The notes beneath the pieces are model-generated. The model made no database searches, was not told where the DNA came from, and saw only the letters and a program-made list of their open reading frames with translations. From Catajapyx aquilonaris (taxonomy: Eukaryota): a DNA stretch of 64,000 bases. Position 1 is the stretch's first letter, and every line of letters starts with the position of its first letter. Shown in pieces: positions 8,494 to 11,400 of this stretch. A program made the translations under genes and the position numbers. The stretch is from the NCBI GenBank assembly GCA_000934665.2, contig KZ537985.1:1-64000 (forward strand), read 5' to 3'.

Positions 8494-11400
8494 GAGTGTG
8501 AGCTGCGAGTGTCCCCGAGAGAACCGTGTGGGTTATGGAAGGAGCAGGACCAGAACTGGCAGCGTCTTCGAGACAGACTGGACACCCTGCCGTACTGTAC
8601 TACTGGTGATTCAGAAGGCAAGTTTGTTACATCTGTTTATTTAAAAATCGCCTCCAATATGGAGGGTACAAATTACTCGCAGTATGTGCACCGTCCGATG
8701 ATCTTTCGTCCATTTTCGGTCCATTTACGACGACAGCACATGTTGCAACAGTCGTAGTCAAATCGGCACTGAAAATAGCCAATGTAATAGTGTCACCTTC
8801 GTAAAAGATGCCACTTACCAGCTCTCCTGCGATGTTACACTGCGCATCTTTTGGTCTGATCCCATGGCTGAATCCGTACATGGGCACGTCCGGAACAGTC
8901 TTGGGAGACTCGGAGTTGGCAACAATGGGCTGGGCAACAGGCGGAAACTGAGCGACAGGCGGTCTCTCCTCTGCATTGGCTTGTATGAATGTCCTCGCTT
9001 CTAGTGACCCCTTGTCTCCGGAGGATCTGCTTCTGGCTGAGGGTTTCTTTAAGGCGTCGCAACTGCTGAAGAGGATGAGGATGGCTATGGCAGCCAGACA
9101 CCGGACCAAGGTTGAGACCATGTTGAGCGATGCTGAGAACTGTCGACACAAGCTGTGGCTTCAGGGGTTTTATTCCAGAGAAGACGAATTCGGGGAATGT
9201 TTTCGGACAATGAGAATGGTTGCTCGGAATGTGTTTTTCAGGGAATTGTTATACCACGCTGGAATGTTAGTTGCGTATATGATGATGACGTCTATGAATT
9301 TTTCTGGAAGTCACGTATCATTCATCGTGGCATGTGGAGGATCCTTGAATACTAAAGTACATTACCAATAAGACCACTCCTCATTAACATTGCTTTTTAT
9401 TAGCAGTACAGTACATTTTTACACTGTTTATGGTGTCAAATACGCATTTTGCATTTGTGACTGGAAGTCACTGATTTGTTCTCGTTGACACGTGGCTCTG
9501 ACAGACCCGTCCATTCTGAACAAACGACGGCAGGAGTTGTAGCAGCAGTCCCAGTCTTTTTGACACTGAAACAATAACAAAATATCAACAATTTGAACTC
9601 CACGTATTGTTGTGACTTACTGACATATTCTCCAATCCATTTACAATGGCTGTGAACGCGAGTGATTTCCGGTGGGTAGAAGGACAACAGCTGCCAGGCA
9701 AATTTGAAGTCCTTTTCTACTGACGACATGTCGGTGCTCATTGTGGTCGTAGGTCTCGTAACACTAGGCTTGCTTCTGGGTGCAGGGGTGGTAGGAGTTG
9801 TATATTTTCTATACATAGGGTAAGGCTCGGGTGTGATTTGAAAAAGACTCCCTGCGATCATGTTGGTCAGGGTATCGATGTCGTATTCTTCGTATGTAGA
9901 GTCGGAGATATCATTGTGGTGTGAGATAGGTTTTGCTGTAGTGCTAGACTCGGGTTCTGTGCTGGTTGTATTCGTCGGTGTGGTTGTTGTAGTGGTAGTG
10001 GTAGGTTTAGTTGTGATGGTAGATACGGTTGTAGTAGTGGCCGTCGTGGTTATTGTGATGCTGGCTTCAGTTGTGGTGGTAGGAGTGGTGGCAGGAGTGG
10101 TGGCAGGAGTGGTGGCAGGAGTGGTGGTAGGAGTGGTGGTAGGAGTGGTGGTGGTAGGAATGGTGGTGGTAGGAATGGTGGTAGGAGTGGTGGTCGTGGT
10201 GATCGTGGTCATGATTGGGATGGTGGTGCTGATGCCATCTCCGACCGTCCTGTGCAGGTCGGTATGTTTCGCTTTGGGCCCCATGACTGTGTCGAAATCC
10301 CAGTATCCTAGTCGCTTTCTCTGCGACAATAATGTTTGCATCAGAGGCTTTAGAGTAGTCTTGGGACTGCCCATTCCAGGCCTGTTGGGAGCCTGGAGCC
10401 ATGACGATGGAATGTAATTGTGTTTAGGGATGACACGTTTTGGTTTCATCAGCGGTTGATTAGCTCCATTTTCTGTAAACTGTGCGTAAGGGTTACATTC
10501 AGGTCCCTGCGATAATTACGAGTGGTTTATGAAACCTGGGCTTACCGTGCGTTTGCTCAATGGTGTCCACAGCCTAGGTGGTGAGGGGCTGTAAATGTTC
10601 ACAATTTAATGATTTCAACATGTTGAAATTAAGTTGTTATGACGCTTATGTGTAAATCAATCGAAAACTCACTTGGGAAAAGATGATACGATACCACTTA
10701 GACCAAGCAGCAGAAGTATGGGTGCCAGCATAGTCTCTGCAATAGAAGAATGGTCGGTTTTTTACACGCCTTATTAAATAATTAATACTGCGATTAACAG
10801 TTGGTTGCTGTATAATAGTGCACCTCCTCGTTCAAAAACTGAAACTGAAAAACTCTAACAAAAACTGTCGCGACATACCAATAATTATGTATTAATTGTA
10901 ACTATTTAGAGTAGGCCAAAGAATCGCCATGTATTTAAACAATTGCCATCTTTTATCGATTTAAACTTGCAGACATCAGTGTAAACTTTCCATTACATGC
11001 GACAAATGCACCCATTTTACATGTATAAACATTTTACATATTTCTAAAAAAAATAATGGAATACTCACACACTTAAAAATGTAAAGGCATCCACTGTAAA
11101 TGTTAAATTCCGGAGAGAATTCCTTCCCACCAGACTCACTTCTGCATACTCAGAAAAAGACCCCTAAAACGTTCCGATTACAGCTACATAAACAAAACTT
11201 CCCATTGGTTGCTTATAGATGCACTACAATCCAAAAATTGATACAGGTTAATAAATAACCGCCGGATTCGCCCCTTTTAATGGCAATGTTGAGCTTTTCC
11301 GTTTTGCATTCCTAGAGTGCCTCGCTGCTGACTCCGTTAAGTCAACCCCCGACTTAAAAAAACAACGAAGATAACCAGACGCAAAACAGAAAGTTATTTG

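Follow-up and report, generated by a model that had tools for sequence, protein, structure and literature searches.

Inhibitor cystine knot (ICK, or knottin) peptides such as the spider Toxin_12/huwentoxin-type and omega-atracotoxin-type families are built on six cysteines with a central CC doublet and, in the account given in PMC3210452, follow the consensus CX3-7CX3-6CX0-5CX1-4CX4-13C, with 'fourth disulfide' variants also mentioned there. The ICK fold itself is characterized by disulfides I-IV, II-V and III-VI, of which the third threads the ring formed by the first two, and by an antiparallel beta-sheet of three strands. In spider cysteine-rich toxin precursors, a processing quadruplet motif of the Glu-x-x-Arg type is described as marking propeptide cleavage (PMC6832493). 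The TES-120 surface-coat mucins of Toxocara canis are reported to carry a Ser/Thr core flanked by toxin-like six-cysteine ShKT domains (PMC3611597), and Pro-rich secreted proteins are described as turning into mucins by gain of exonic repeats rich in Pro, Thr and Ser (PTS), a process termed mucinization and exemplified by the passage from PROL1 to MUC10 and by other lineage-specific mammalian mucins (PMC9417175). Here, we analyze a 64,000-nucleotide (nt) stretch of DNA from Catajapyx aquilonaris (contig KZ537985.1, positions 1-64,000; hereafter the window, whose numbering is used throughout) and describe two neighboring minus-strand genes, A and B, that share a cysteine-rich C-terminal module. 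We propose, with a confidence close to even, that gene A encodes a secreted glycoprotein with a knottin-type head on an O-glycosylated spacer, and that it arose by an old duplication and a later gain of repeats.

Gene A is a real animal gene of four exons, whose exon and open reading frame structure is given in Table 1; the gene model proposed in an earlier, sequence-only reading of this DNA could be reproduced exactly, and the sequence features listed there were all found in place. The coding region opens with an ATG at 10731-10729 and closes with a TAA at 9430-9428, and introns 1, 2 and 3 measure 84, 39 and 59 nt. Canonical GT-AG sites link exons 1 and 2 to exon 3 and keep the hydrophobic N terminus in frame with it: the exon 1 donor, CAA/GTGAGT, is in phase 2, and exon 2, bounded by the acceptor TTTACAG/ and the donor ACG/GTAAGC, is the sole in-frame bridge that we found from the signal-peptide exon to exon 3 on reading the sequence, a splice from exon 1 straight to exon 3 being ruled out by the lack of an acceptor of the right phase. 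Exon 3 encodes, in order, Cys38, the basic sites KPKR and RKR, the Thr/Pro-rich region and a non-repeat C-terminal part, and ends in EITR, the first cysteine of the knot and loop 1; exon 4 supplies Cys 2 to Cys 6 and then a 19-residue polar tail. Outside the repeat core exon 3 has 187 codons, which were open in just 3 of 20,000 shuffles, and at least five cysteine codons fell within the first 26 codons of exon 4 in 28 of 20,000. Openness of exon 4 by itself (45 codons) is unremarkable, at 1,685 of 20,000 shuffles, and across the repeat core the other frames and the opposite strand are likewise open, so that frame openness there is uninformative.

Gene B starts ~270 nt downstream of the AATAAA of gene A on the same strand and, behind a CTG/GTAAGT donor, completes an eight-cysteine version of the module that has six cysteines in A. 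The introns of the two genes fall at the same codon boundary, in phase 0 between the sixth residue of loop 1 and Cys 2, and 13 of the 33 aligned domain residues are identical, comprising the G-E in loop 1, D-x-D-CC, C-R-R, one Gly and the cysteines. The alignment score of the two domains was reached by 1 of 5,000 full shuffles and, with the cysteines held fixed, by 4 of 5,000 shuffles of A and 6 of 5,000 of B; the tblastn cross-matches between the genes have E values of 0.017 and 0.069. The sequence-only reading had argued for tandem duplication from the common motif and the identically placed intron, both of which hold, and had noted that A, unlike B, has six cysteines; we add that B has eight. 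A and B are paralogs with a common intron position, and their origin by tandem duplication is well supported by adjacency, orientation, intron boundary and a similarity that exceeds chance even with the cysteine positions fixed. Outside the domain the precursors are not alignable (local score of 34 versus a shuffle mean of 32), and a similarity of the pro-regions was consequently dropped. The window holds no third copy by tblastn or by a six-frame scan for the cysteine pattern, in which only A and B among the 15 matches have the framework. A long trinucleotide repeat at 60520-61186, located inside open frames of 220 and 188 codons, translates into poly-Gln from the plus strand and into poly-Cys from the minus strand, and the latter reading gave false matches in that scan. 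A third minus-strand AATAAA, at 9169-9174, lies between the stop codon of A and the ATG of B, ~50 nt upstream of the latter; it may have arisen by chance or may serve A as an alternative poly(A) signal.

The duplication is old, because synonymous sites are saturated and the 3' flanks cannot be aligned. The 33 aligned codons have 51 of 99 nucleotides in common, synonymous divergence (dS) ranges from 0.9 (LWL85) to 2.9 (NG86), which amounts to saturation, and the codons differ at 6 of the 13 identical residues, four of the six shared cysteines included. The 120 nt 3' of the two stop codons show no alignment beyond chance (204 of 1,000 shuffles reach the score), and the introns rise only marginally above their shuffles (7 of 2,000), with common positions that cluster by eye at the pyrimidine-rich acceptor end. 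The six-cysteine framework is nevertheless complete in A, including the Cys 1 encoded by exon 3, and has been conserved over the long term. We roughly estimate at below a few per cent the chance that a knot drifting for much of the time since duplication would have kept its six cysteine codons, whatever plausible neutral divergence is assumed. Retention of all six despite synonymous saturation implies in-frame joining of exon 3 to exon 4 for most of the history of A, and supports, by inference, selection on the knot in both copies and a long-term function of the knot in A.

As to the type of the module, the sequence-only reading had called it a knottin; the cysteine spacing agrees with this, and the knot fold is putative. 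The spacing in A (6, 5, 0, 3 and 13 residues) lies within the ICK consensus, which is permissive enough to make this weak evidence. A search of Protein Data Bank (PDB) chains with a profile of both last exons returned six sequences at E of 10 or below, five of them Mu-theraphotoxin-Cg1a variants with Cys 2 to Cys 5 in register (E of 0.17 to 8) and with loops 1 and 2 equal in length to those of gene A as aligned, the sixth an unrelated lactonase. Exon 2 of gene B alone gave a single match, omega-atracotoxin-Hv1 (E of 0.93), and in the Atlas the clusters closest to both exon products had spider ICK toxin families among them, with scores of 0.79 and 0.83 that serve as leads only. Exon 4 of gene A alone retrieved nothing but unrelated chains from the PDB, complement factor H among them (phmmer, E of 0.12 or worse). 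Its extra cysteine pair likens gene B to the 'fourth disulfide' variants noted in PMC3210452, and gene A, like ICK precursors, has a signal, then a pro-region and lastly a knot at the C terminus. Unlike ICK toxins as we know them from these comparisons, gene A has its loop 5 at the upper limit of the consensus, 19 residues after the last cysteine, a phase-0 intron inside the domain (preceded by codon 328, Tyr, and followed by codon 329, Cys 2), a pro-region of ~300 residues with a mucin-like repeat, and no significant sequence or profile match. The sequence leads all agree, none of them significantly, and the module is probably of the ICK type. An ShKT/SXC six-cysteine domain was ruled out by the lack of a Pfam ShK match in the exon products together with the CC doublet, which the ShKT cysteine pattern is not known to have.

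The other searches were unproductive. Profiles of named knottin toxin families (Toxin_12, Omega-toxin, conotoxin and others) did not match the exon pieces. Among 8,000 candidates scored in a word-indexed protein search with exon 3, none reached an E of 0.01; protein searches gave four candidates for the non-repeat C-terminal part of exon 3, none at E of 1 or below, and no candidate for exon 1 of gene B. A HMMER profile of the two last exons, run against 1.84 billion representatives, had two matches at E of 0.001 or below, which we regard as chance matches and not as relatives: both, in proteins of 434 and 342 amino acids (aa) with a repeated W-H-N...G-R-A-T-V unit, cover profile positions 15-28 only, in four repeats each. 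In metagenome contigs none of 161 protein-pattern matches was confirmed, and no exact match was found to a 24-nt piece of exon 4. AlphaFold2 gave helices with a mean predicted local distance difference test (pLDDT) score of 52.3 for exon 4 alone (45 aa, hence lacking Cys 1, with a two-sequence alignment) and a pLDDT of 42.3 for exon 3 alone, values too low for either model to be interpreted, and a two-chain prediction that paired the end of exon 3 with exon 4 scored 0.06.

From the remainder of the gene A protein, secretion and dense O-glycosylation are expected. The highest-scoring Kyte-Doolittle window of 19 residues is at residue 1, and the five highest are all found at residues 1-5. Residues 119-300, rich in Pro, Thr and Ser, contain as their core a 12-nt tandem array (10073-10194; 9.7 copies, 89% matches), which is what defines a PTS-type region; the product has one N-glycosylation sequon. 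Seven cysteines are present, at residues 38, 322, 329, 335, 336, 340 and 354. Of the features proposed earlier, the LSKR (residues 30-33) and RKR (97-99) dibasic sites, the EITR directly upstream of the domain and the Thr/Pro-rich region all recur here, the last as a tandem-repeat region, and we add a third dibasic site, KPKR (55-58); all three lie N-terminal to the repeat. The description of the protein as mucus-anchored is a guess that the sequence does not support, as nothing was seen that would anchor it: because the N terminus is the only strongly hydrophobic stretch and the tail after the last cysteine is polar, there is neither a transmembrane nor a glycosylphosphatidylinositol anchor, and the exon products contain no Pfam domain of matrix- or mucus-binding type. 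Domains of gel-forming mucins (the C-terminal CTCK, VWD-type) likewise have no Pfam match in the exon products, and the module has just six cysteines in 33 residues. The Toxocara mucins are the closest architectural precedent that we found: as far as PMC3611597 describes them, they too combine a secreted mucin-type core with a small toxin-like six-cysteine module, but theirs is of another type, ShKT, and comes in tandem pairs, whereas gene A has a single module. A limited literature search for an ICK module in combination with a mucin-like region, which is no proof that the combination is unpublished, had no mention of an inhibitor cystine knot among the papers listed.

Whether the head is made depends on how intron 3 is spliced. 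Its 5' end, GTCAGTAAGT, is by sequence a GYNNGY tandem donor (GTCAGT, then AAGT) in which the frame-keeping TAT/GTCAGT, the only in-frame donor, is followed 4 nt downstream by GTAAGT. As the sequence-only reading had noted, the frame-keeping site is the weaker of the two, and use of the other shifts the frame and loses the knot; the computed pairing energies (Table 1) bear this out. On a 9-position donor consensus both sites match at 6 of 9, the matches of GTAAGT being contiguous. Use of GTAAGT, with the exon ending at 9621, would give a 361-aa product with a 33-aa tail containing one cysteine, and retention of intron 3 a 390-aa product. Pairing GTAAGT with an AG that lies 10 nt into exon 4 would restore the frame (371 aa) with Cys 2 deleted; this combination was dropped, since it is the AG coming first after the pyrimidine tract that matches the acceptor of B. 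In all these forms translation would stop within the last exon, upstream of one common AATAAA. Such delta-4 pairs in human and mouse are, according to PMC4267661, used alternatively mostly as splicing noise with a regulated minority, ~20% of the alternatively spliced human sites being tissue-dependent and the two sites of regulated pairs resembling each other. The gene A pair is like them in having two GT 4 nt apart whose choice shifts the frame, and differs in that the frame-keeping site is the weaker and that the shifted frame ends in the last exon; its alternative use would be putative.

Several observations weigh against the reading of gene A as a glycoprotein with a knottin-type head. At merely 39 nt, intron 2 leaves the 5' part of the model less secure. 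The ICK similarities are all non-significant (E of at least 0.17; Atlas scores below 0.9), and Pfam returned no family at E of 10 or below for any of the four exon products, which are exon pieces and not the whole domain. No relatives were found in the protein collections, and the family and its architecture are known from a single species. Cys38, the seventh cysteine, is unpaired by count and makes the total odd, and no lectin or other folded domain is visible or predicted outside the knot. Finally, GTCAGT is the weakest of the five donors in A and B, and if site strength were all that counted, the knot-less product would be expected to dominate.

With these points in mind, the attached head has to be set against four other accounts of the locus. 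The protein might be the long precursor of a free peptide, a somewhat doubtful alternative to our mind, in which the Thr/Pro region would be a glycosylated pro-region, cleavage would occur after EITR or nearby, and the knot, of ~56 residues, would act alone in a toxin-like, antimicrobial or signaling role, gene B being the ordinary short-precursor version. The E-x-x-R at this place matches the processing quadruplet motif as described in PMC6832493, the precursor layout is that of spider toxins, and gene B shows that this genome also makes the module from a short precursor; yet a four-residue motif with one fixed and one semi-fixed position easily arises by chance, gene B has none near its knot (its own E-x-x-R sites end at residues 43 and 53, with Cys 1 at residue 95), and a repeat-bearing pro-region of 280 residues far exceeds what a propeptide needs. 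Alternatively, the knot of A may no longer be made, GTAAGT being used to yield a Thr/Pro-rich secreted protein of 361 aa, its 33-aa tail unrelated to the knot, and the knot frame of exon 4 being a recent relic. The better pairing of GTAAGT with U1 fits this view, as do the odd cysteine count of the knot-bearing product and the frame-shifted product's ending in the last exon before the same AATAAA; by the usual rule, a stop codon in the last exon does not make a transcript a target of nonsense-mediated decay. We consider such a loss unlikely: six cysteines and seven other residues are still common with B despite synonymous saturation, which would make it very recent, and the knot frame of exon 4 has neither a stop nor a frameshift.

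Regulated use of both donors, to which the domain-off switch suggested in the sequence-only reading corresponds, is quite improbable in our estimate. Under this account the 4-nt choice would switch the frame of the last exon and give two stable products, a knottin head from the weak donor and a head-less form from the strong one. The tandem donor is of a class with a tissue-dependent fraction in human, and both stops lie in the last exon; on the other side, the use of such pairs is described as primarily noise, with similar sites in the regulated ones (PMC4267661), and the two donors of A clearly differ in strength. That gene A is not a gene at all, or is wrongly modeled as an open frame on a Thr-codon microsatellite beside a dead copy of gene B, we hold to be highly improbable. 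Several frames on both strands are indeed open across the repeat, no homolog was found, and the short second intron and the weak donor would be at home in such a case, but the codons outside the repeat are open far beyond what shuffling yields, the same frame runs into a Cys 1 and loop 1 that match gene B, and the signal-like exon, the splice phases, the stop codon and the AATAAA are mutually consistent.

For the preferred reading, an attached knottin-type head on a glycosylated spacer, we propose the following origin and working. The ancestor would have been a two-exon gene for a pro-region and a knot, with the intron between Cys 1 and Cys 2 already in place, and an old tandem duplication would have produced A and its neighbor B. 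The A copy, which has two extra short 5' exons, would then have gained Thr-rich tandem repeats within its pro-region by the mucinization route. As in the cases described in PMC9417175, a repeat would have been gained while the ends remained homologous: the pro-region of B is Pro-rich and repeat-free, and the array of A stands at the corresponding place. Unlike in those cases, A and B are paralogs in one genome and not orthologs, which makes a repeat-free ancestor presumptive, and the pro-regions cannot be aligned. The resulting protein would consist of a cleaved signal peptide, a leader of ~100 residues with three dibasic sites, a densely O-glycosylated Thr/Pro-rich region of ~180 residues and a single C-terminal six-cysteine module of the ICK type. 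The knot may act as a binding head, and the glycosylated region as an extended, protease-resistant, hydrated spacer that holds it in a secreted glycoprotein layer. We infer attachment of the knot, present-day use of its donor and any binding target; the knot most likely stays attached to the glycosylated region, an arrangement favored because the dibasic sites are all N-terminal to the Thr/Pro region and only the monobasic E-x-x-R precedes the knot. Its production would need the weak GTCAGT donor in at least some transcripts.

Table 1. Features of genes A and B in window coordinates; donor strength is the computed duplex energy with the 5' end of U1
Feature	Coordinates	Strand	Donor energy (kcal/mol)	Description
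Gene A	10731..9428	minus		four exons; spliced product 373 aa
Gene A exon 1	10673..10731	minus		59 nt; ATG and hydrophobic N terminus, likely signal peptide
Gene A exon 2	10546..10588	minus		43 nt; brings exon 3 back into frame; includes LSKR, a dibasic site
Gene A exon 3	9625..10506	minus		882 nt, 294 codons; P0003
Thr/Ser/Pro-rich mucin-like region	9709..10254	minus		residues 119-300; 73 Thr, 15 Ser and 22 Pro in 182
EITR	9658..9669	minus		residues 314-317, four residues before Cys 1; monobasic Glu-x-x-Arg
Knot-like domain, Cys322-Cys354	9488..9645	minus		C-x6-C-x5-CC-x3-C-x13-C, split by intron 3
Gene A intron 3	9566..9624	minus		59 nt, phase 0; acceptor TTGTTTCAG/TGT
Tandem donor GTCAGTAAGT	9615..9624	minus		frame-keeping GT 9624-9623; frame-shifting GTAAGT 9620-9615
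Gene A exon 4	9428..9565	minus		138 nt, 45 codons and TAA; P0001
Gene A AATAAA	9396..9401	minus		26 nt 3' of the stop codon
Gene B	9121..8673	minus		two exons; eight-cysteine version of the module
Gene B exon 1	8819..9121	minus		101 codons; P0002; signal-like N terminus, Pro-rich pro-region, Cys 1, loop 1
Gene B intron	8769-8818	minus		49 nt, phase 0
Gene B exon 2	8673..8768	minus		31 codons and stop; P0004; remaining seven cysteines of the eight-cysteine domain
Gene B AATAAA	8636..8641	minus		31 nt 3' of the stop codon
Gene A intron 1 donor			-5.7	
Gene A intron 2 donor			-8.2	
Gene A intron 3 donor GTCAGT			-2.9	frame-keeping
Gene A intron 3 donor GTAAGT			-5.6	frame-shifting
Gene B intron donor			-10.2	

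The window as a whole is animal DNA, with Wnt, Sulfotransfer_2, O-methyltransferase and short-chain dehydrogenase exons. Two Wnt exons ~13 kb apart on the plus strand, at 25589-25927 and 39141-39494, match Pfam wnt positions 2-61 and 198-277 (E of 1e-16 and 5e-25), the introns of this gene being long in comparison with the 39-84 nt of those in genes A and B. A two-exon Sulfotransfer_2 gene of carbohydrate sulfotransferase type with an intron of ~110 nt occupies 42970-44152 (plus), an O-methyltransferase exon 58461-59042 (minus; Methyltransf_3, E of 6e-36) and a short-chain dehydrogenase exon 61898-62476 (plus; adh_short, E of 1e-29). At 53079-54764 on the plus strand an open frame of 561 codons, rich in Ser, Thr and Asn-x-Ser/Thr sequons and arranged in loosely repeated units of ~40 residues, has no Pfam match and only compositional tblastn matches to gene A; it may be an exon of a second mucin-like or heavily glycosylated protein. 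Some 1.7 kb downstream of gene B, at 6617-6911, a 36-nt unit is repeated in tandem (8.2 copies, 79% matches; alternatively a 108-nt unit), with the palindromic core GGATTAATCC in each unit. The window contains 8 N bases, and an X in the open frame at 21146-21499 indicates an assembly gap there; no Rfam family and no tRNA was detected when the window was scanned for them.

Practical interest in the locus is modest, the family being one without detectable relatives, and its significance lies in how such proteins may come about. If the knot-bearing product is made, a toxin-like disulfide-rich module would have been recruited into a mucin-type glycoprotein through duplication and repeat gain, with the short precursor B and the 'mucinized' A preserving both stages side by side, and this would be the first ICK module found built into a mucin-type protein. 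Should both products of the tandem donor be made, the animal could tune a toxin-like or binding activity of its secreted glycoprotein layer. More broadly, the attached head on its glycosylated spacer would extend mucinization from mammalian Pro-rich proteins to an invertebrate-style family of cysteine-rich peptides and would provide an ICK-type counterpart to the ShKT-bearing mucins of nematodes.

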